Sequence record: OR544955
DNA from: Escherichia phage vB_EcoP_EP32B
Direction: 5' to 3' (one strand)
Length of the DNA: 64,000 bases
The notes beneath the pieces were generated by a model. That model saw nothing but the letters and a program-made list of their open reading frames with translations, was not told the origin of the DNA and did no database searches. The position numbers and the translations under genes are program-made. Positions 3,409 through 53,281 of the stretch are shown one piece after another (the first letter of the stretch is position 1; every line of letters starts with the position of its first letter).

Positions 3409-4029
3409 ATGTTTAAACGTAAATCTACTGCTGACCTCGCTGCTCAAATGGCTAAACTGAACGGTAACAAAGGTTTCTCTTCAGAAGATAAAGGCGAATG
3501 GAAGCTGAAACTCGACGCATCCGGTAATGGTCAAGCGGTAATTCGTTTCCTGCCGGCAAAAACAGATGACGCCATCTACACACGGCGATTATGACTCTTG
3601 TCCTGTATGTCAGTACATTAGTAAAAATGACCTGTACAATACCAACAAAAATGAATATTCTCAACTGAAACGTAAAACTTCTTATTGGGCTAATATTCTG
3701 GTTGTTAAAGACCCTCAAGCTCCAGATAACGAAGGTAAAGTATTCAAATACCGTTTTGGTAAAAAGATTTGGGACAAAATCAATGCAATGATTGCAGTTG
3801 ATACTGAAATGGGTGAAACTCCTGTTGATGTAACTTGGTTCTTGGTACTGCCGCTCTGGGCGGTGCAGCAGCTGCCGCAGCTTCTGTTGCAGATAAAGTT
3901 GCTTCTGACCTTGACGATTTTGATAAAGACATGGAAGCCTTTAGTTCTGCAAAAACTGAAGATGACTTCATGAGCTCTACCTCATCCTCTGATGATGGCG
4001 ACCTCGATGACCTGTTAGCTGGTCTATAA
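3409..4029 (+). pseudogene. 32: ssDNA-binding protein gene 32, interrupted by two frame-breaking lesions (about 621 bp versus ~906 bp expected)
   Basis: Frame 1 [36 protein letters not shown]...AVIRFLP matches T4 gp32 N-terminus then stops; frame 2 resumes at ...[21 protein letters not shown]...GETPVDVT (zinc-binding region); frame 1 again supplies the acidic C-terminus ...[12 protein letters not shown]. About 20 residues before THGDYD and most of the core after DVT are absent. Confidence 0.8.
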
Positions 4030-4598: not shown

Positions 4599-6196
<1,598 letters not shown>

Positions 6197-8847: not shown

Positions 8848-9944
8848 ATGAGTACAGTTTTTAACACACAACAAGTCGATGTTTTGAATGAACCGATGTT
8901 CTTTGGTTCTGGTCTTGGTATTGCGCGTTATGATATTCAACGACATAAAGTTTTTGAAGAACTTATAGAAAAATCCTTGTCGTTTTTTTGGCGCCCAGAA
9001 GAGGTAAACTTGATGTTGGACTCTGCGCAGTTCAATAAGCTTCCTCAGTTCCAACAAGACATCTTTACAAACAATCTTAAGTATCAATCATTATTAGATT
9101 CTATCCAAGGCAGGGCCCCATCTGCGGTACTTATGGCACTGATTTCTGACCCTTCATTAGATACGTGGGTTGCAACATGGACATTCAGTGAAACTATTCA
9201 CTCTCGTTCGTATACTCATATTATGCGAAATCTTTATACCGATCCATCCAAAGTATTTGATGAGATTGTATTAGACGAAGCAATCATGAAACGAGCTGAA
9301 TCAATAGGTAAATATTACGATGATGTTCTAGACAAGACTCGTCGTTGGGAAAATGCAAGCGTGATTTAATGAAGTCTCTTTATCTCTGTTTGCATGTAAT
9401 TAACGCCTTGGAAGCTATTCGTTTTTACGTATCATTTGCATGTACTTTCAACTTCCATAAAAACATGGAAATTATGGAAGGTAATGCAAAGATTATGAAG
9501 TTCATTGCTCGTGACGAACAACTCCACCTCAAGGGTACTCAGTACATTATCCGTCAACTTCAATCTGGTACTGATGGTGATGAGTGGGTTCAAATTGCTA
9601 AAGAATGTGAACAGGAAGCAGTTGACATTTTTATGGAAGTAAATAGACAAGAGAAGGAATGGGCTGCACATCTCTTTAAAGACGGTACATGCCCGGGTAT
9701 CAATACACAGAGTATGTGTGCTTTTGTTGATTACTTGACTGTGTCTCGTATGAAACAGTGTGGTTTGCCATGTCCAATTACTGATGCTCCGACCAAGCAT
9801 CCGTATCCTTGGATTCGTGAATATCTGAACTCTGATTTAGTTCAAGCAGCTCCTCAGGAAGTTGAAATCAGTTCTTATCTTGTCGCACAAATTGATAATG
9901 ATGTAGACCAAAATGTAATCAATTCATACAAAAAATATTTCTAA
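8848..9944 (+). pseudogene. nrdB: Ribonucleotide reductase small subunit gene, intronless, frame-shifted near 9345-9370
   Basis: ORF 8848..9369 (173 aa, ...TWTFSETIHSRSYTHI...) and ORF 9345..9944 (LYLCLHVINALEAIRFYVSFAC...EGNAKIMKFIARDEQLHL...) together cover R2 iron-centre motifs but lie in different frames. Confidence 0.85.
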
Positions 9945-12124: not shown

Positions 12125-12158
12125 ATCCAACAATAAAGTCGATTCGCTGAATACTGAA

Positions 12159-15455: not shown

Positions 15456-16448
15456 ATGTTACCTGTCGTCGGAAAACTTATTTCTCCAAAAGAACTGGCT
15501 GAGATTATTCCTTTGTCGGAAGCTTACGCATCACAAGTGGCTTCTCATCGCGAACAAGTTAATTCGATTATGAACGGTGAAGACCCACGCAAACTTATTG
15601 TTGTAGGTCCTTGTTCAATTCATGACCCTATTGCTGCTGTTGAATACGGCAAACGTCTGGCTGAACTTCAAACTCGTCTTCCTAATGTTCTGTTAGTGAT
15701 GCGCGTTTATTTTGAAAAGCCTCGAACTACCGTAGGTTGGAAAGGTCTTGTAAATGATCCATATCTTGACGGAAGTTTTGATATGAACCACGGTCTTATA
15801 GTTGCACGAACATTGTGTCGTAAACTTCTACGTATGGGACTTCCATTAGCAACTGAAGTATTAGACCCATTCACGATTAAGTATCTTTCTGGTATTTTCT
15901 CATGGGTTGCTATTGGCGCCCGTACGACTGAAAGTCAGACACATCGTGAAATTGCTTCAGGTCTACCGATGTGCGTAGGCTTCAAGAACGCAACCAATGG
16001 TTCTATTAAAGTAGCTACAGACGCGATGTATAGTGCCGCCTGGCCTCATCGGTATATGGGTATGGACGTCGATGGTACTGTAGGCATTGTTGAAGCTGAA
16101 GGTAATCAGAATACGCATATCGTATTGCGTGGCGGGACCAACGGCCCGAACTATCATTCTTCTGATATTCAAGAAGCTTCTAACAAAGCAAGGGCAGTAG
16201 GTCTGAATCATTATGTAATGGTTGACTGTAGCCATGCAAACGCTGATGGACATTATAGCAATCAAATTGGTATTGGTAAAAATTTAGCAGCTAATGATTT
16301 GGTCAAAGGAATTATGATAGAATCATTCCTACATGAAGGAAATCAAAAAATTTCTGATAATATGTCCTATGGCGTTTCCATTACCGATGCGTGCATCAGT
16401 TGGGAACAAACTAAAGAGCTGTTAACTTATATTAATAAGGTTCAATAA
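15456..16448 (+). CDS. 3-deoxy-D-arabino-heptulosonate-7-phosphate (DAHP) synthase, class I (AroF/AroG-like)
   Basis: 330 aa with motifs VVGPCSIHD, MRVYFEKPRTTVGWKG, AIGARTTESQTHRE, PMCVGFKN, MVDCSHAN, IMIESFLHEGNQ, YGVSITDACISWE; colinear with E. coli AroF/AroG along the whole length. Confidence 0.9.
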   Translation: MLPVVGKLISPKELAEIIPLSEAYASQVASHREQVNSIMNGEDPRKLIVVGPCSIHDPIAAVEYGKRLAELQTRLPNVLLVMRVYFEKPRTTVGWKGLVNDPYLDGSFDMNHGLIVARTLCRKLLRMGLPLATEVLDPFTIKYLSGIFSWVAIGARTTESQTHREIASGLPMCVGFKNATNGSIKVATDAMYSAAWPHRYMGMDVDGTVGIVEAEGNQNTHIVLRGGTNGPNYHSSDIQEASNKARAVGLNHYVMVDCSHANADGHYSNQIGIGKNLAANDLVKGIMIESFLHEGNQKISDNMSYGVSITDACISWEQTKELLTYINKVQ

Positions 16449-17029
16449 TGAAAGCTAGCACATACCTTCAGATTGCATATCTGATTTCTCAAGAATCAAA
16501 ATGTTGTTCATGGAAAGTTGGCGCAGTCATTGAAAAAGATGGGCGCATTATCTCTACTGGGTATAACGGTAGCCCGGCCGGTGGTGTTAACTGTTGTGAA
16601 CATGCATCTGAAAATGGTTGGTTGAAGAATAAACCAATCCCAGTCATCGTTGCTGGGCATAAAGAAGGCACTACAGCATTTGGACGGGCCGATAATTTTG
16701 TTTTGGCTAAAGAACATCGGGCTGCTCATAGTGCATGGTCTGCCAATAACGAAATCCATGCGGAACTGAATGCAATTTTGTTTGCAGCTCGTAAAGGTAA
16801 TTCTATTGAAGGTGCTACGTTGTATACGACACTTTCTCCATGTCCTGATTGCACTAAAGCTATTACACAGTCAGGTATTAAAAAGGTTGTATATGCAGAA
16901 TTATATGACCGATCTCCTGAAAATTGGGCAGACATTCTTAAACAAGCTGGTATTGAAGTAATTCAGTACTCTCGTAATAATCTTCGTTCTCTGAATTGGG
17001 AACAAATCCGAAACTTTTGTGGTGAATAA
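16448..17029 (+). CDS. cd: dCMP deaminase
   Basis: 193 aa (same as T4 Cd); zinc-ligand motifs HAELNAI and SPCPDC; start overlaps DAHP synthase stop. Confidence 0.9.
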   Translation: MKASTYLQIAYLISQESKCCSWKVGAVIEKDGRIISTGYNGSPAGGVNCCEHASENGWLKNKPIPVIVAGHKEGTTAFGRADNFVLAKEHRAAHSAWSANNEIHAELNAILFAARKGNSIEGATLYTTLSPCPDCTKAITQSGIKKVVYAELYDRSPENWADILKQAGIEVIQYSRNNLRSLNWEQIRNFCGE

Positions 17030-17327
17030 TATGATTTTAACTGAACAAGAAACTATGGTTCTTCGTGAACGTATTAAAACTATTCTGTCTGTAGGCGTTC
17101 ATTGTGTTGTATTTGAAAAGGCTAACGGTGATGTTCGTACGATGTTTGCCTCCCGTGATGAACTTGAAGTCAAATACGAAAATAACAATCCGGCAACAGA
17201 AGTTCGTTATGAACCTCGTGAATCAGTTCGAGCATTCGATACCAAGTTAGGCCAGTGGCGTTCTTTCCGCCTTGATAAAGTAATTTCGGTTGATGGTACT
17301 CCGGTAGAACGTTTGCTTCTTATGTAA
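17019..17327 (+). CDS. Hypothetical protein (31.x position)
   Basis: 102-aa ORF between cd and gene 31. Confidence 0.45.
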   Translation: MVNNMILTEQETMVLRERIKTILSVGVHCVVFEKANGDVRTMFASRDELEVKYENNNPATEVRYEPRESVRAFDTKLGQWRSFRLDKVISVDGTPVERLLLM

Positions 17328-17384: not shown

Positions 17385-17717
17385 ATGTCTGAAGTACAAC
17401 TCCCAATTCGTGCTGTTGGTGAATATGTTATTCTGGTTTCTGAACCCGCTCAAGCAGGTGATGAAGAAGTTACCGAATCAGGTCTTGTGATTGGTAAACG
17501 TGTTCAAGGTGAAGTTCCTGAACTATGTGTAGTTCATTCTGTAGGTCCTGATGTTCCTGAAGGTTTTGTTGAAGTCGGTGATTTGACTCCACTACCAGTT
17601 GGACAAATTCGAAATGTTCCACATCCATTTGTGGCTTTGGGACTTAAACAACCTAAAGAAATTAAACAGAAATTCGTAACATGCCACTATAAAGCTATTC
17701 CGTGTCTTTATAAGTGA
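17385..17717 (+). CDS. 31: Head-assembly co-chaperonin (GroES analogue) gp31
   Basis: 110 aa (T4 gp31 111 aa); N-terminus [21 protein letters not shown]; MotA-type middle promoter upstream. Confidence 0.85.
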
Positions 17718-17841
17718 TATAAATAACTATATGAAGAGAACACTCTTCTAAGCGGTAGCCTACAACTGAGAGACTTGTCGAAAGAAGGTGAAATTCAGAC
17801 GAACGTGGCTACTAAATATTATCTCGAATTGAGAATTTAAA

Positions 17842-18000
17842 ATGATTAAACAATTACAACACGCTCTTGAACTGCAACGAAACGCATGGAATAACGGTCA
17901 CGAAAACTACGGCGCGTCGATTGATGTTGAAGCCGAAGCTCTGGAAATCCTCTATCACGCGTCAGAAAAAGGTTATCTGTCTAAGTCGTGGTTGGCATGA
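17842..18000 (+). CDS. Small hypothetical protein (52 aa) at the position of rIII
   Basis: ATG at 17842, product MIKQLQHALELQRNAWNNGHENYGASIDVEAEALEILYHASEKGYLSKSWLA; below the 60-aa track cutoff; assignment by synteny only. Confidence 0.35.
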   Translation: MIKQLQHALELQRNAWNNGHENYGASIDVEAEALEILYHASEKGYLSKSWLA

Positions 18001-18111
18001 TGACGGGTTTATGGTTATCCTGTCGTTAAATATCCAAAACCTATGTTCCCCTTGAGGGCTTGAGCAGGCAATGTCAATAAGTCCTGCATTTTCATTTAAA
18101 GAGAATTTATA

Positions 18112-18291
18112 ATGGCAAAACAAGCTAAAGCAAAGAAAGCAGTTGAAAAGAAAGTTGATGGTACCTCTAAACGCGCTGGATACAAGCGTGGGTCGAACTC
18201 TCGTATTAATCAAACAGTTGAGAAGATCATGCGCAGAGCACGTGCAGTTCTTCGAGATGATGCTTCTCGTTTTGGAAAGGTTGTTGCATAA
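18112..18291 (+). CDS. Small basic hypothetical protein (59 aa)
   Basis: ATG at 18112, product MAKQAKAKKAVEKKVDGTSKRAGYKRGS...; followed by hairpin terminator 18297-18319; below track cutoff. Confidence 0.4.
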   Translation: MAKQAKAKKAVEKKVDGTSKRAGYKRGSNSRINQTVEKIMRRARAVLRDDASRFGKVVA

Positions 18292-18296
18292 TTTTA

Positions 18297-18319
18297 GGGA
18301 GACTTCGGTCTCCCTTTTG
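18297..18319 (+). terminator. Intrinsic terminator (identical copy of the gene 32 terminator)
   Basis: GGGAGACTTCGGTCTCCC + TTTTG, identical to 4036-4058. Confidence 0.8.
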
Positions 18320-18350
18320 TGCGTTTAGGGCAGAAAAAGTTTAAAAAGAT

Positions 18351-18380
18351 GTTTACTCTCCTGTAGGATGTGTTACTATA
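18351..18380 (+). promoter_or_regulatory. T4-type early promoter
   Basis: GTTTAC 18351-18356; TGTTACTATAGAC -10 region. Confidence 0.6.
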
Positions 18381-18420
18381 GACTTGTACCACCTAATCAA
18401 TAAAACAACCGGAGAACAAA

Positions 18421-18789
18421 ATGAAAATCAATCTGAACTCATACATCAAATGTAAAGACCATGATGGTTATAAAGCTATCGAAATTAAAGAATTCCAGTG
18501 GATGTTATACAAAGAGCAATTTGAGTTCGTAGGTTGTATGACCCCTGAAGGTCCTTCTGATGATTTCTCTTGGAAAATTGTGTTAGCAAACTTTTTCACA
18601 GGTGACACATACGAATTAAAAACTATTATTACCGGTAAAATTCGTTCAGAAACATATGTTGACGAAGAAACTGGTTACTCTGAAGATGTTACATGGTATC
18701 AAAATGGACGAATTACAGCAGATAACCTGATCGAAAAAATGAAAGCCAAAGGTGTTTTAAATTTAGACAATTGGATTAAAGTTGCATAA
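18421..18789 (+). CDS. Hypothetical protein (30.x cluster)
   Basis: 122-aa ORF with its own early promoter (18351-18380) and RBS GGAG. Confidence 0.55.
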   Translation: MKINLNSYIKCKDHDGYKAIEIKEFQWMLYKEQFEFVGCMTPEGPSDDFSWKIVLANFFTGDTYELKTIITGKIRSETYVDEETGYSEDVTWYQNGRITADNLIEKMKAKGVLNLDNWIKVA

Positions 18790-20131: not shown

Positions 20132-20294
20132 ATTAATCCAGAAATTGTTTGGTACGGAAATGATTGAAGTTACTTATCGTGTAACCGACGTTTTTCCTCG
20201 ATTAAACTACCTAAAAATGACAGAAATTTATCTATCGAAGACCGTATACCTGGATACGGACATTGGGCTGATGTTGAAATTATAAGTGTTAAAG

Positions 20295-21574: not shown

Positions 21575-21844
21575 ATGTTTGTAGTTCATGATATTACAGA
21601 TGGCAAAAATACCACACGTGACTACGGTCATGTTAACATGTTCTTTCGAGACTGGCCATTGTTTCGTTCAGTAAAAGACGCAGAAATATTTAAAGAGTGT
21701 GTTGAACAAGGGTTCATCTACATTTCAGAATACTATGTTGAAGGTCTCGGTAAATGGATTACCACTTATCAGAAAACGCTGAAATCGCTTCTAGATGAAG
21801 TGGCTTATAATAGAACCGTAACCAAAATCGAGGACATCAAATGA
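21575..21844 (+). CDS. Hypothetical protein (30.1 position)
   Basis: 89-aa ORF immediately upstream of ligase gene. Confidence 0.45.
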   Translation: MFVVHDITDGKNTTRDYGHVNMFFRDWPLFRSVKDAEIFKECVEQGFIYISEYYVEGLGKWITTYQKTLKSLLDEVAYNRTVTKIEDIK

Positions 21845-23261
21845 TTTTAGATATTTTAAACCAAATAGCTGCGATCGGTTCTACTAAAACAAAACAGGAA
21901 ATCCTTAAGAAAAATAAGGACAACAAATTACTTGAACGTGTATATCGTTTAACGTATGCACGTGGCATTCAGTATTATATTAAGAAATGGCCAGGACCAG
22001 GTGAAAGGTCTCAAGCGTATGGCCTTCTTGAATTAGATGACATGTTGGATTTTATTGAGTTCACATTGGCCACTCGTAAACTCACTGGTAATGCAGCAAT
22101 TAAAGAGCTCATGGGTTATATCGCTCTATCGCGAATAAGGTATGGCCTGGACTTATTCAATTGCAACCGCAGATGTTAGCATCTGCATATGACGAGAAAT
22201 TGATTACTAAAAATATTAAATGGCCTGCATTTGCTCAATTAAAGGCAGATGGTGCTCGTTGTTTCGCTGAAGTTCGTGATGACGGTGTTCAATTCTTTTC
22301 TCGTGCTGGTAATGAATACCATGGTCTTACCCTATTAGCAGATGAACTAATGGAAATGACTAAAGAAGCCCGTGAAAGACACCCTAATGGGGTTTTAATC
22401 GACGGTGAATTGGTTTATCATTCATTTGATATTAAAAAGGCTGTGAGCTCAGGAAATGACCTGTCGTTCTTATTTGGCGATAATGAAGAATCTGAAGAAG
22501 TACAAGTTGCAGACCGTAGTACTTCAAATGGTTTAGCAAATAAATCTCTTCAAGGGACTATTTCTCCTAAAGAAGCGGAAGGTATGGTTCTTCAAGCCTG
22601 GGACTATGTTCCTTTAGATGAAGTCTATTCTAACGGCAAAATTAAAGGTCAGAAATACGATGTTCGTTTTGCTGCTCTTGAAAATATGGCTGAAGGCTTT
22701 AAACGAATTGAACCTATCGAAAACCAGTTAGTTCGTAATCTTGATGAAGCTAAAGTGGTTTATAAAAAATATGTTGACCAAGGTCTTGAAGGTATTATCC
22801 TTAAAAACCGTGATTCATACTGGGAAAACAAACGCTCTAAGAACCTAATTAAATTTAAAGAAGTTATTGATATCGCTTTAGAAGTTGTAGGATACTATGA
22901 ACACTCTAAAGACCCTAACAAATTAGGTGGTGTCGAACTCGTATCACGTTGTCGTCGTATTACAACCGATTGTGGTTCAGGGTTTAAAGATACAACTCAT
23001 AAAACAGTTGACGGTGTAAAGGTTCTTATTCCTTTAGATGAGCGTCATGATTTAGACCGTGAACGATTAATGGCTGAAGCTCGTGAAGGTAAATTGATTG
23101 GACGTATTGCTGATTGCGAATGTAATGGTTGGGTTCATTCTAAAGGCCGTGAAGGTACTGTAGGTATTTTCCTTCCAATTATTAAAGGGTTCCGTTTTGA
23201 TAAAACAGAAGCGGATTCGTTTGAAGACGTATTTGGACCGTGGTCCCAGACAGGTTTATAA
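21841..23261 (+). pseudogene. 30: ATP-dependent DNA ligase gene 30, broken by a frameshifting deletion near 22115-22130
   Basis: ORF 21841..22179 = MILDILNQIAAIGSTKTKQEILKKNKDNKLLERVYRLTYARGIQYYIKKWP...LTGNAAIKELMGYI then out of frame; ORF 22161..23261 carries ...KVWPGLI...QPQMLASAYDEK...LKADGARCFAEV (adenylation KxDG) to the C-terminus. About 25 residues between GYI and ANKVWPG are missing. Confidence 0.85.
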
Positions 23262-23346
23262 TGAAAGCTTATTTAGAAACAGTAGTTGTGTACGAAAAAG
23301 GCCCTAATTTTGAAGTTTATCGTACTTTGCTCCCGATTGTGGATTA

Positions 23347-23368
23347 AGAGCCTTCGGGCTCTTTTTGG
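23347..23368 (+). terminator. Intrinsic terminator after DNA ligase gene
   Basis: AGAGCC-TTCG-GGCTCT hairpin followed by TTTTGG. Confidence 0.75.
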
Positions 23369-23402: not shown

Positions 23403-25475
23403 ATGTCTGAACAATTAAATGAAGTGTTTGAATCTGAAGGCAGTCTTCCTGTCGTCAATTTGAACCCTAAAGCTAAAGTTCCACAAGTCTGGAAAATTGG
23501 TGATATCGATACAAATATTGTAGTTCGTTTATTCTCTTACCTTTCCGAAGGCGATGCTGTAAAACAAGTTAAACTTGGCGATAAATACGCTCATGTTGTT
23601 ATTATGAGTCTGTCTGAAAAGGGTAATCTCGCTGAATTGAAAAATGGCCTTGGTCCTGCTCCTATTGATGCAATCAACACCATTTTCAATACAGTATATG
23701 AACAGGTTAAAGCTCTTCGTATGGATGCAGTTCTGTTCCGATTCCCTACCAAGAAATTGAAAGGACGTGGTCAGCAGCTTCAAACTCTTCTTGCTCGTTT
23801 AGTTTCTACTAAAACCGGTGGTCGTTTTAAAGTATTGTCGGCAATGTATCAATTCACAGGTAAACACACCTATGTAATGATGGTTCGTAAAAATGCCAAC
23901 ATTGAAGATATTAAAGGCATCCCTAACATTAACACAGAGTTATACACGAAAGTAGATTCTGATGTTGGCGAAGTTTATGTGAGTAAAAAGACTGGCGAAA
24001 AGGTCACCAAAGAAACGGCTATCGCTGGTTCTATTGCTGCTGTAGAAGAAAAACGTAAAGATAAGCCTGTTATTGCTCGTACTAAAATTTCTCGTCGTGC
24101 TATTGCAGCAAGTCAATCTTTAGAAGCTGACCGCCAAGAAGGTGAGTTATTCCAGAAATACGAAAATTCTGCTAAAGAAGTTAGTGGCCCGGCTACAGCC
24201 GAATTACTTCCTGAAGCATATGAAATCGTACTAGCCCAGGCATCGTCTACAGCAAAAGGCACTCTAGTTGCTGATATCGAAAATAAGATTTATAATCGTA
24301 TTGATGAATCCTTTAGATTTGCTGATGAAGTTTCTTATGGTAGTGTTATTAAGCCAACTTTAGAAAAGTTTGCTAAGAAAATTAAAACTGAAAAAACAAC
24401 ATCTGTTAAAGCATTAGCTGCTTTTGTTGAAGCTGCAAACGAAATTGCAGACTCTATTAAAGACGAATGGTTTGAAGATTTTAGACGAGATAATTTCCAA
24501 CTGGCTGACGACGTTTTAGCTGAAGTATCTGAAAGAACTTGGAAACAACGTAAATCAGCGTTCTTGTCTAATGTGATGTATACTTATGCACGAGAATCGG
24601 CTAGAGGCACCTTTAATATAACAATGAATCGGGACCCTAAACAATACTCTGTTGCTGAAAAACGAGCTATTCGCGAATATGCCTCTTCTGCGTATACCGA
24701 TATCAATAATATGTTGTTAGGTCGTTATAAACCAGATTTTTACGATGTTGCAGATGAAGATGAAGTTAAACGCGCTATTGATGGTCTTGATTCGGCGTTT
24801 TTAAATGGAGACCGTTTACCTGAAGGACTAACGTTATATAGAGCTCAGTCTATCAGAATGCCTATTTACGAAGCAATGGTTAAAAATAAGGTATTCTATT
24901 TCAGAAACTATGTTTCTACTTCATTAGCTCCTATTATTTTTGGCGGGTTTAAAGAGAACGTTGCCCTTGGACTTGCTCCTGAAGAAGTTCGCAAAGAGCT
25001 TAACATTGACAATAATGACGAAGGTGTTACTATTTCTCCTAGTCAAGTAAGAACAGCTATGCATGCGCCAGAACAAATTCGTGTTAACGTTGGATGGGCT
25101 ATTGATGGCGCTCATAAAGTTAACGTGATTTATCCGGGGCAGTTGAGTAATCACCCTAATGAGCAAGAAATTATTTTGCCTAGAGGCATTCTCTTGCAGA
25201 TAAATAAAATTACAGATGCGTCATCTGACACCGGTGCAGGTTTAGAATCCAACCTTAAATTTATTCAAGCTGAAGTTATGTCCTCAGACCAGTTGGACGA
25301 AGCTGTCATTTACGATGGTGATGTTCTCATGGAAACAGGCGAGGTAGTTGCTATGACGGGTGAAATCGAATCAGATGAGCCGGTATCTTTTGCCTCATTT
25401 GTAGAAAAAACTAGTGCTCCTAAAGGATTGAAACTGTTAGCATCTTTGGTTCCGTTTAAATTTGTCCAAGGATAG
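23403..25475 (+). CDS. alt: Alt ADP-ribosyltransferase (virion-packaged)
   Basis: 690 aa (T4 Alt 682); position between ligase and gene 54; ART-type R...STS...E pattern in C-terminal half (...YVSTSLAP...). Confidence 0.75.
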   Translation: MSEQLNEVFESEGSLPVVNLNPKAKVPQVWKIGDIDTNIVVRLFSYLSEGDAVKQVKLGDKYAHVVIMSLSEKGNLAELKNGLGPAPIDAINTIFNTVYEQVKALRMDAVLFRFPTKKLKGRGQQLQTLLARLVSTKTGGRFKVLSAMYQFTGKHTYVMMVRKNANIEDIKGIPNINTELYTKVDSDVGEVYVSKKTGEKVTKETAIAGSIAAVEEKRKDKPVIARTKISRRAIAASQSLEADRQEGELFQKYENSAKEVSGPATAELLPEAYEIVLAQASSTAKGTLVADIENKIYNRIDESFRFADEVSYGSVIKPTLEKFAKKIKTEKTTSVKALAAFVEAANEIADSIKDEWFEDFRRDNFQLADDVLAEVSERTWKQRKSAFLSNVMYTYARESARGTFNITMNRDPKQYSVAEKRAIREYASSAYTDINNMLLGRYKPDFYDVADEDEVKRAIDGLDSAFLNGDRLPEGLTLYRAQSIRMPIYEAMVKNKVFYFRNYVSTSLAPIIFGGFKENVALGLAPEEVRKELNIDNNDEGVTISPSQVRTAMHAPEQIRVNVGWAIDGAHKVNVIYPGQLSNHPNEQEIILPRGILLQINKITDASSDTGAGLESNLKFIQAEVMSSDQLDEAVIYDGDVLMETGEVVAMTGEIESDEPVSFASFVEKTSAPKGLKLLASLVPFKFVQG

Positions 25476-33680: not shown

Positions 33681-33877
33681 TGCGTTATTCAATTGAAGAT
33701 GCCTTTAATAATGATGAAGAATTTGAAACAGAAATTAAATTCTTAATGGAAAAGTATCGTCTACGACGTCAGGATATTCGTATCCTGGCAGACCACCCGT
33801 GTGGTGAAGACGTCCTTTATATTAAAGGAAAATTTGCCGGTGCGAGTGGTATAAATAGATATGTAATTTCAACTTAG
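33680..33877 (+). CDS. Hypothetical protein (uvsY.-2 position)
   Basis: 65-aa ORF overlapping uvsY stop. Confidence 0.5.
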   Translation: MRYSIEDAFNNDEEFETEIKFLMEKYRLRRQDIRILADHPCGEDVLYIKGKFAGASGINRYVIST

Positions 33878-41422: not shown

Positions 41423-42951
41423 TTAGATGCCTTTTACATATACACGGCGGAAGTAAGCGTTCTTACCAAGGCTGTTCAGGATAGACGGCATACCGGACTG
41501 GATGCGAGCACCTGGAGCCTGCAGGGAACTTTCAGCAAACGGGTTAACACCGATACCGTAACGAGTTTTGAAGCCCATTACCGGCTGGAAGTTCTTAGGA
41601 TCAGAACCACGCAGTGGGGTAAGTGCAACGTAAGGAGCATAGTAAATACCTGCATCCATTTCGTTAGCGCCTTTGTAACCAACGGTGAAGTAATCCTGTT
41701 TAGCATACTGGTCGATGTATACGCGGTATTTACCACCAAGTACACCGGCAAATACAGACTTAGTAGTGTCGGTATTAAAACCAGAAGCCAGACCCTGTGC
41801 AGCGTAAGAAATACCAGTATCAACTGAAGCCAGTACGTTAACTACGTTACGGGAAGCGATAATGAAGTTACCTTCACCACGACCGGTTTGACGAGCAATT
41901 TCAACTGCTTCTTTATCAATCTGGAACAACAGAGATTTAAAGCTTTCACCGGCCCAACGAGCACCACGGATATCAATCGGGTCCTGGAAGTCAAATACAC
42001 CAGCTTTAGAACCCGGAGTCAGGGTCATACCGGATTTACCAACCTGTGCTGAGTAGTTAATCCAATCAACAACTTCACGGTTGATTTCTAGCATAATTTC
42101 TGTAGCCAGAATACCACTCAGTTCAGCATCAGCATCCATACCGTGTACTGCACGGAGGTCTTGTGCTAATTCGATAGAGTAAGCAGCTTTCAGCTGGCGA
42201 GATTTAGCTTCGATAACTTGTTTATCGATACGGAAGCCCATTTCATTCCATGGGTTATCGGTAGAACCGTTGAAACCTTCCTGAAGTTCAGCGATAGAAG
42301 TAGCCATACCTTCAGCGATTTCTACCAGTGCACCAGCTTCCATTTGTTTCTTAACTTCGGCATCTAATTTAGCAGCATCGGTCGCATCGATTGTTACTTG
42401 AACAGAAGCTTGCAGATATACAGTACCAGTTTCCTGGAAGAAGTGAGTGCCAGAGCTGGGAATTTCTTAGCAGCACCCTGACCAGAGAACATCGCATCTG
42501 GGGCATACATCGGATGGAAAGCTTCTTTAGCGCCAGCAGCGATAGGGTCTTTACCATATACTGCACGGAGAGCAAATACCTGACCGGTCGGGCTGTTCAT
42601 AGGCTGAACACCACAAATATCAAAAGCGATCAGATTAGGAATAGCACGACGAACCATACCCATAACTGCTGGCCCAATTTGGGTTACTGCACCAGAGGTT
42701 TGACCTGCTGCGATGTTCTGAGCATTATAACCATGGTCACCACCAATTTCAGCTTCGGTCAAGAAAGAACCAAATGCCTGAGCGATTTTCTCGTCTTTAT
42801 ATTCAGGGGATACTTCGAAATCTTTTTCCTGGTTTTCGAAGATTTTAGCGATAATAGCCTGCTTGCTATTAGCGATTTCCGGCAGGCCTTCACCTTCCAG
42901 CAGTTCTTTCCATTTGTCTACGAGCTGAGCTTTAGTTTTGATAGTAGTCAT
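41423..42951 (-). pseudogene. 23: Major capsid protein gene 23, broken by a frameshifting deletion near 42447
   Basis: ORF 42394..42951 = MTTIKTKAQLVDKWKELLEGEGLPEIANSKQAIIAKIFENQEK...AAKKFPALA then out of frame; ORF 41423..42343 continues MEAGALVEIAEGMATSIAELQEGF...YFRRVYVKGI. Both match T4 gp23 nearly residue for residue; about 12 residues after FPALA are missing. Confidence 0.9.
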
Positions 42952-43811: not shown

Positions 43812-43819
43812 TATTTATA
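43812..43819 (-). promoter_or_regulatory. Late promoter for gene 22
   Basis: Minus-strand TATAAATA overlapping the 3' end of gene 21, ~31 nt upstream of gene 22. Confidence 0.65.
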
Positions 43820-44428
43820 ATGCTTTTAAACTCTCTGCGAGAGCTTTAAATGCTTCATCAGCACTGTTTTTGGTGATTTCCACCGAATTTTCTGATTCTG
43901 ATATTTGTTTAGGAGTAACCCAAGCATCTGGAGCAGAAGGTCCCCACACGGCATCTACGCCGACGGTTAATTTAAATCCTTCGTTCACGATACGGTACCC
44001 TTTATTGGTGTCGGTTAAAGAACCAAGACCACGAGAGGAAACACCTGGAATCCAACCAGCTCGTATATTAGCAGCTAATTTATCGCCGGGACCATGGTCG
44101 CCTTCAATAATTCTAGCGCGTCCATATACATCGTTTCCTTTCCACCACATATCTTCAATAATGATAGCGGCTTGCATAGGGTCAACATTTGCGCGAGGTG
44201 GATGATTTAATTCTCCAAGGGCTTGTTTGGTTGCGCTTTTTCCAAAACGCGTTTAGGATATAAACGTTTATTTCGGTTAACAACCTCTGCCTGAAGAAAA
44301 ATACCTTCTATATAAAGCCCTGGTTTTAAGCCAGAATCTTTTCCATCATGAGATTCCAACATTGGAACGCCATCAATAATCTCACCGGGTTGACCCCAAG
44401 TTTCAATAAGTAACTCGGGTTTATTCAT
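43815..44428 (-). pseudogene. 21: Prohead protease gene 21, broken by a frameshifting deletion near 44230-44236
   Basis: ORF 44207..44428 = [31 protein letters not shown]...RLYPKRVLEKA then out of frame; ORF 43815..44177 = MQAAIIIEDMWWKGNDVYGRARIIEGDHGPGDKLAANIRAGWIPGVSSRGLGS... Correct frame resumes at ...TKQALGELNHPPRANVDPMQA; about 10 residues missing. Confidence 0.85.
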
Positions 44429-52552: not shown

Positions 52553-53281
52553 TTAATTCATAAACCCATCGTCAAATGGTGAATTTTGTCTACCACGGTT
52601 GTTAACTACTACATACGGCTCAACGTATTCACTTGCCTCTGAATTGATTTGCTCAACTTCAGAATATTCATCGATATTAATGTCATGGATACCGTCAAGA
52701 TTTCTAACAGGGTTAAGTTCCAAGTCACTAAATTCAGGTATATTGATACCTTCATTTTTCTGAAGCACCGGATTGATTTCTTCGCCAGAGTAAATAAACT
52801 TGCCTGCAGTAATTTTACGAATCGCATTTTTACCTACTTGATAGAACGGGTCATATGGTTCAACCCAGTTAATCTCAAACAAACTGTTGTCCATTGGGAA
52901 GTATATCAAATCACCTTCCTTGGGCTCCTGATTGTTGACCTGGTGTTTGAAAAGACCTGGGTTAATAGATAATGTAACTTCGTCTTGAACTTGCATTCCG
53001 AAGTTGCTGAAGAACGATTTCGCTCCTTCATAACCTTCAAAAGAGTTCAGATATGCAGCAAATTTCCATGCTTTAGTAAATTTATTTTTAAGGTCCTCAC
53101 CAAAGATAAGGTCCACGGCAACATATTCACGTGGAACATAAAAACATTCAATACCGCGCATCTGTATGCTTTCTGCCACTAGAACATCGGCTAATGTCTG
53201 ACTATTCTCATAATTATTAAAATTAGAATACCCACCACGATTTTCTAGCTTGGCGAAAAGATTTTTATCATAAGTTGCCAT
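52553..53281 (-). CDS. 14: Head completion (neck) protein gp14
   Basis: 242 aa (T4 256); synteny 13-14-15. Confidence 0.75.

Follow-up and report, generated by a model that had tools for sequence, protein, structure and literature searches.

The DNA ligase gene (gene 30) in the sequence analyzed here is broken by a 73-nt gap, which we take, with a probability of about 0.8, to have arisen in the sequence record rather than in any living phage. The gap and its exact extent, its absence from the relatives examined, the 14 companion gaps in the same window (the whole 64,000-nt stretch of DNA under analysis) and the joint lethality of these lesions are all established directly here. Judging from the pattern that the gaps form, the source of the ligase gap is most likely an assembly or consensus artefact, or editing of the sequence.

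Identity of the window and of its ligase gene

The window comes from an RB69-like T-even phage (Mosigvirus). Its DNA is 97–99% identical to that of many RB69-like Mosigvirus phages, and the best matches are the Escherichia phages Mizar, SA79RD and p000v and the E. coli O157 typing phages 3, 6 and 13. Around 22 kb the gene order is 30.3 – 30.2 – 30.1 – 30 (ligase) – small ORF – alt, so that gene 30 occupies the same position as the gene for the T4 gp30 ligase (6DT1) and for its 497-aa Mosigvirus orthologs in RB69, O157 typing phage 3 (TP3), SA79RD and Mizar. The intact Mosigvirus ortholog aligns with T4 DNA ligase (PDB 6DT1) over residues 1–494 (residues 1–483 of 6DT1; E = 2e-192). The gene in the window is most likely an unremarkable ligase gene of the T4 gp30 type, the frame of which has been broken in the record by one dropout of a series.

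The break in gene 30

Compared with the intact gp30 orthologs, the gene in the window lacks 73 nt and with them residues 96–119, is shifted in frame and contains no uninterrupted ORF of ~487–497 codons. Two frames are found in its place, at 21841–22179 and 22125–23261, both on the plus strand. The first encodes an N-terminal stub of 112 aa, in which residues 1–95 of the ligase, ending …LTGNAAIKELMGYIA, are followed by 17 out-of-frame residues and a TAG stop. The second holds the remainder of the gene, equivalent to residues 120–497 plus the stop codon at 23259–23261, and reads …SIANKVWPGLIQLQPQMLASAYDEK…KADGAR… up to the C-terminal …WSQTGL. When the intact 497-aa ligase of SA79RD was used as a tblastn query, residues 1–95 were recovered at 100% identity in frame 1 and residues 120–497 at 99.5% identity in frame 3. 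Base-level alignment to Mizar, SA79RD and O157 typing phage 3 places the junction at 22124..22125 (plus strand), where it is blunt, with 0–1 nt of microhomology. The lost 73 nt correspond to the third base of codon 95 and the whole of codons 96–119, i.e., 24 residues.

These residues belong to the N-terminal DNA-binding domain (solved alone as 5WFY, residues 1–129), which is incomplete with 96–119 deleted. The nucleotidyltransferase domain PF01068, on the other hand, is present in full in the downstream frame (E = 7.7e-27), as is the KxDG adenylation motif, which can be read directly as an intact KADG at 22242–22253 on the plus strand. The downstream piece also extends through the C-terminal part, which can be aligned with T4 ligase.

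A sequence-only reading had proposed that gene 30 is cut in two by a frame-shifting deletion, with the loss of part of the N-terminal DNA-binding region, and the ORFs, the tblastn hits and the alignments all confirm this. Its description of the N-terminal 95 residues and the KxDG-bearing remainder as lying in different frames corresponds to frames 1 and 3 of the tblastn search, and its estimate of ~70 nt and ~25 residues gone near 22115–22130 was accurate, the exact figures being 73 nt at 22124|22125, or 24 residues plus one base of codon 95. The check that it had suggested, alignment with the ligase genes of relatives, likewise bears the deletion out.

The TAG stop of the stub (22177–22179) overlaps an ATG in the downstream frame (22173–22175), forming the sequence ATGTTAG at 22173–22179. 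On reading the sequence we saw no Shine-Dalgarno sequence before this ATG, and the overlap is probably due to chance.

The missing segment in relatives

The 73 nt are present in all 16 relative loci that were fetched, drawn from isolates, ENA metagenomes and Logan assemblies, and the segment is conserved across these 16 aligned relatives, with at most 8 differing positions. Three further metagenome contigs, found with the conserved flank as a control, also carry it, so that the count among relatives read directly is 19 out of 19. An intact ligase of 497 aa is found in every one of the 12 relatives that came with gene calls.

Searches with the junction itself give the same picture. A 160-nt query that spans the junction gave matches in 144 phage records. 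Not one of the 60 listed runs across it without interruption, and wherever the match is full-length (27 of the listed records), it covers 233 nt. The best 40 records from the first search, for which the query was 1846 nt long, each span 2021 nt; relative to these, 175 nt are missing, an early hint of a second gap beyond the 73 nt of the ligase. The 28-nt ligase junction was not found in the JGI metagenomes or the GTDB genomes. A search of IMG/VR with the junction 28-mer was also empty but is uninformative, as the undeleted control 28-mer from the flank was itself unmatched there. Searches with the junction in gene 23 and with a 25-mer specific to the window gave no match, and no identical protein was found for Alt, Hoc, gp29 or the 112-aa stub. 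The ligase deletion is thus not shared by any relative examined.

Fifteen private deletions in one window

Comparing the whole window with TP3 (NC_041863.1) reveals 15 deletions of at least 15 nt and no insertions above 3 nt over 64 kb. The 14 companions of the ligase gap range from 15 to 321 nt and are private to the window, and the same gaps recur when the comparison is made with SA79RD and p000v. Coordinates below refer to the plus strand unless the minus strand is given.

Gene 32, for the ssDNA-binding protein (window 3409–4029), has lost 68 nt at 3572..3573, which shifts the frame, and another 214 nt at 3837..3838. Together these amount to 282 nt and restore the frame, the intervening 263 nt being read out of frame; the ORFs that are left measure 61, 135 and 64 aa. 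Upstream of frd, the DUF5417 ORF (frd.2) is truncated by a deletion at 4761..4762 that measures 321 nt against TP3 and ~80 nt against p000v. The thymidylate synthase gene td (window 5353–6196) is frameshifted by a loss of 17 nt at 5865..5866 and nrdB (window 8848–9944) by a loss of 79–82 nt at 9355..9356, while 58 nt are gone from the start of pseT.3 at 12128..12129. At 17951..17952 the 3' half of rIII has been deleted together with its stop codon and the downstream spacer, a loss of 142–247 nt, or of up to 274 nt, depending on the reference because the length of the spacer varies naturally among relatives; what remains of rIII (window 17842–17952) ends after codon 37 of 82.

Gene 30.4 lacks 34–37 nt at 20197..20198, and next comes the 73-nt ligase gap at 22124..22125. 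Between the ligase and alt, the 'Phage_blade' ORF (PF24647; window 23261–23347) has lost 102 nt at 23289..23290, a blunt deletion that is in frame and reduces an ORF of 62 codons in relatives by 34 codons to 28 aa. Near its 3' end, alt lacks 15 nt, also in frame, at 25447..25448, which leaves Alt with 690 aa here, against 695 aa in each of the 12 gene-called relatives.

Further along, 50 nt are missing from the 3' end of uvsY.-1 at 33840..33841. The gene for the major capsid protein, gene 23 (window 41423–42951), is frameshifted by a 34-nt deletion at 42448..42449 on the minus strand, leaving ORFs of 185 and 306 aa, and that for the prohead protease, gene 21 (window 43815–44428), by a 28-nt deletion at 44234..44235, again on the minus strand, leaving ORFs of 73 and 120 aa. 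Finally, a gene annotated in TP3 as 'head closure Hc2', which from our reading of the gene order we take to be T4 gene 14, lacks 36 nt in frame at 53222..53223 on the minus strand. By tblastn and the ORF lists, none of the coding sequences of gp32, td, nrdB, the ligase, gp23 and gp21 still lies in a single frame.

T4 genes 23, 32, 21 and 30 are each essential, and a sequence with all these frameshifts could not yield virions or a propagating phage. Since the sequence as a whole is not that of a propagating phage, it allows no specific conclusion on the ligase. The sequence-only reading had implied a phage without its ligase, and this is where it loses its support: the ligase gap is 1 of 15 blunt, private deletions, others of which frameshift gp23, gp32 and gp21.

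Character of the deletions

Microhomology at the ends is limited to 0–1 nt in 15 out of 15 deletions. Their lengths, with a mean of 92 nt and an SD of 93 nt, are not multiples of 3 in 11 of the 15 cases. Two other indels, of 12 nt and 6 nt, are in frame, have repeat homology of 6–7 nt and resemble ordinary polymorphisms. The fragments of the broken genes remain 95–100% identical in protein to the intact orthologs by tblastn, with no other decay, and none of the missing pieces was found relocated elsewhere within the window.

As a control, TP3 was compared with SA79RD and p000v over the same 48 kb. The only differences are replacements of whole genes or of intergenic sequence, affecting a homing endonuclease, frd.2, the nrdA.1 region, the spacer downstream of rIII, the 30.5–30.6 region and the hoc domains, and there is no difference inside the essential genes that carry deletions in the window. 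Deletions in T4 typically arise between short direct repeats. We also considered a natural repeat-mediated deletion of the T-even kind and rejected it, with microhomology of 0–1 nt at all 15 ends and with essential genes frameshifted. From their sequence, the deletions look unfiltered by selection and unlike the products of T-even recombination.

Relation to O157 typing phage 3

The window and NC_041863.1/KP869101.1 begin on exactly the same base, which lies at an arbitrary position within the long tail fibre gene. Positions 1–64000 of the window are equivalent to 1–65384 of NC_041863.1, the two are collinear throughout, and at each structural polymorphism the window has the TP3 form. The shared first base and the collinearity suggest that the window was assembled on TP3 or re-oriented to it. 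The two sequences are 98.3% identical (1.7% different); in the first 3.5 kb, which we inspected, the substitutions relative to TP3 are spaced in multiples of three, and the window is sometimes nearer to other phages than to TP3, for example to Mizar in the ligase region. Because of this spacing and of the varying nearest phage, the substitutions look natural.

The genomes of the O157 typing phages are reported to have been assembled de novo with Velvet, into 1–7 contigs (PMC4429339), which does not explain the window. O157 typing phage 7, considered as a candidate source, proved to be a Tequatrovirus and was rejected.

A probable origin in the sequence record

Reference-guided phage assemblies are subject to a class of artefact in which consensus or scaffolding drops out and the uncovered stretches are closed up. 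The gaps in the window resemble such dropouts: they are multiple, private, blunt, blind to frame, placed regardless of whether the gene is essential, and with respect to the one reference, TP3, they are deletions only. The approximate equality of the mean and the SD of the gap lengths is in addition what would be expected for random coverage holes. The resemblance does not extend to the gap edges, which have neither a drop in quality nor back-filling.

We infer that the conjunction of deletions only, the TP3 origin of coordinates and the TP3 architecture arises because a reference-guided consensus or scaffold had its uncovered stretches closed up. Specifically, the assembly, or the ordering of its contigs, was probably carried out on the coordinates of O157 typing phage 3, and stretches left uncovered would then have been dropped and their ends joined, with no N in their place. 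Editing of the sequence, whether deliberate or accidental, would produce the same signature. In either case the real phage would be expected to carry an ordinary, intact T4-type ATP-dependent DNA ligase of 497 residues, and resequencing should give an uninterrupted ORF.

Several details fit a simple dropout model less well. The 73 nt of the ligase are well conserved in relatives, which is at odds with that model, and a hypervariable stretch in which reads failed to map can be rejected as the cause of the ligase gap given this conservation across 16 relatives. The mismatch density within 25–200 nt of the junctions, 1.9–2.2%, equals the background of 1.7%, and so there is no sign of back-filling from the reference or of poor base quality at the gap edges. 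No GC bias was found in the deleted or the flanking sequence of the 15 gaps. The gaps are also unevenly placed: 11 of the 15 fall in the early-gene cluster, which makes up the first 25.5 kb, or 40%, of the window (p of about 0.009 in a post hoc binomial test). This clustering in window 1–25500 is not accounted for by local GC content, and a simple model of uniform random dropout would not predict it. These points bear on the exact technical cause and do not revive a biological reading.

Alternative explanations

The same gaps could have been made in silico, by putting random deletions into a genuine TP3-like genome, so that they would not be a product of assembly at all. The perfectly blunt junctions, with natural variation right up to their edges, would be accounted for in this way, as would the fact that the gaps are linked neither to GC content nor to local divergence; the junction and the aberrant 112-aa product are, moreover, absent from the public collections searched. 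Nothing in the data separates editing from assembly dropout, however, and the clustering in the first 25 kb would be unexpected from uniform random editing. We consider this origin unlikely.

If the record is instead taken at face value, all 15 deletions may be physically real and sit on a dead or defective template, for example a heavily damaged or rearranged single molecule or clone, or DNA of a non-propagating particle, which would not represent the consensus of a population. Lesions that are frame-blind and unselected, in broken genes free of decay, would fit very recent damage of this kind. On the other hand, it would take 15 independent blunt deletions on 64 kb, with no rearrangement, duplication or insertion, and we know of no process in T-even replication or recombination that yields 15 such deletions on one stretch. 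The short direct repeats typical of T4 deletions are absent as well, and a lysate would give the wild-type sequence as its consensus. A defective template is accordingly very unlikely.

Marginally less credible than a defective template is the biological reading proper, in which a viable phage has truly lost its own ligase to a frameshift deletion and relies on the host's NAD-dependent LigA. The deletion is cleanly present in the sequence, the sequence on either side is of high quality (protein identity of 100% and 99.5%), and T4 genetics provides an example of a ligase that can be dispensed with under certain conditions: the classical gene 30 mutants of T4 are viable in hosts that overproduce ligase or in rII backgrounds. 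Like the window, those mutants have lost the reading frame of the phage ligase. Their lesions are single and their genomes otherwise intact, however, whereas the window also has broken genes for the capsid protein, the SSB and the protease, and because of these the analogy provides no route to viability. The deletion is found in no relative examined, and the same molecule carries frameshifts in gp23, gp32 and gp21, for which no substitute in the host is known. A wild T-even phage without ligase, if true, would inform on dependence on the host enzyme.

This reading might be rescued by supposing that the ligase frameshift is truly present in the phage stock and that the other gaps have a technical origin, so that a natural RB69-like phage would depend on host LigA. 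If the other gaps are artefacts, however, the ligase gap, which is equally blunt, private and free of microhomology, has no better claim to be real, and we regard this mixed case as a shade less probable again.

Discontinuous genes do have a precedent in T-even phages, in that T4 gene 60, like the ligase of the window, has a coding sequence that is discontinuous in the DNA. Gene 60 contains an extra insert of 50 nt that is conserved and skipped; the window ligase, by comparison, has lost coding sequence that is conserved, and its interruption is peculiar to this window. A split ligase made functional by programmed frameshifting, translational bypassing or reinitiation into a two-piece enzyme is the least credible proposal: the ATGTTAG overlap could in principle allow termination–reinitiation, but sequence is missing, not inserted, 24 conserved residues of the DNA-binding domain are gone, there is no slippery heptamer at 22115–22135 and no Shine-Dalgarno sequence before the ATG, and the arrangement occurs in no relative, neither in the 19 read directly nor among the phage records listed. 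Recoding or a two-piece ligase thus appears to be excluded in practice.

Use of the record

With a defect of the record as the preferred reading, the practical value of the result is that a sequence with at least 15 closed-up gaps needs re-assembly before it is interpreted biologically. Any pseudogene, split gene or missing domain in the window is suspect, including those in gp32, td, nrdB, rIII, gp23, gp21 and alt, and calls for confirmation at the level of reads.

An aroF-like DAHP synthase gene (PF00793) lies between the cd.x ORFs and the dCMP deaminase gene in Mosigvirus relatives. The collinear alignments imply that the window probably carries it too. In three of the relatives' sequences this auxiliary metabolic gene is found at 17512–18504 (L002), 16211–17203 (L004) and 401–1393 (L006), where it is already annotated.
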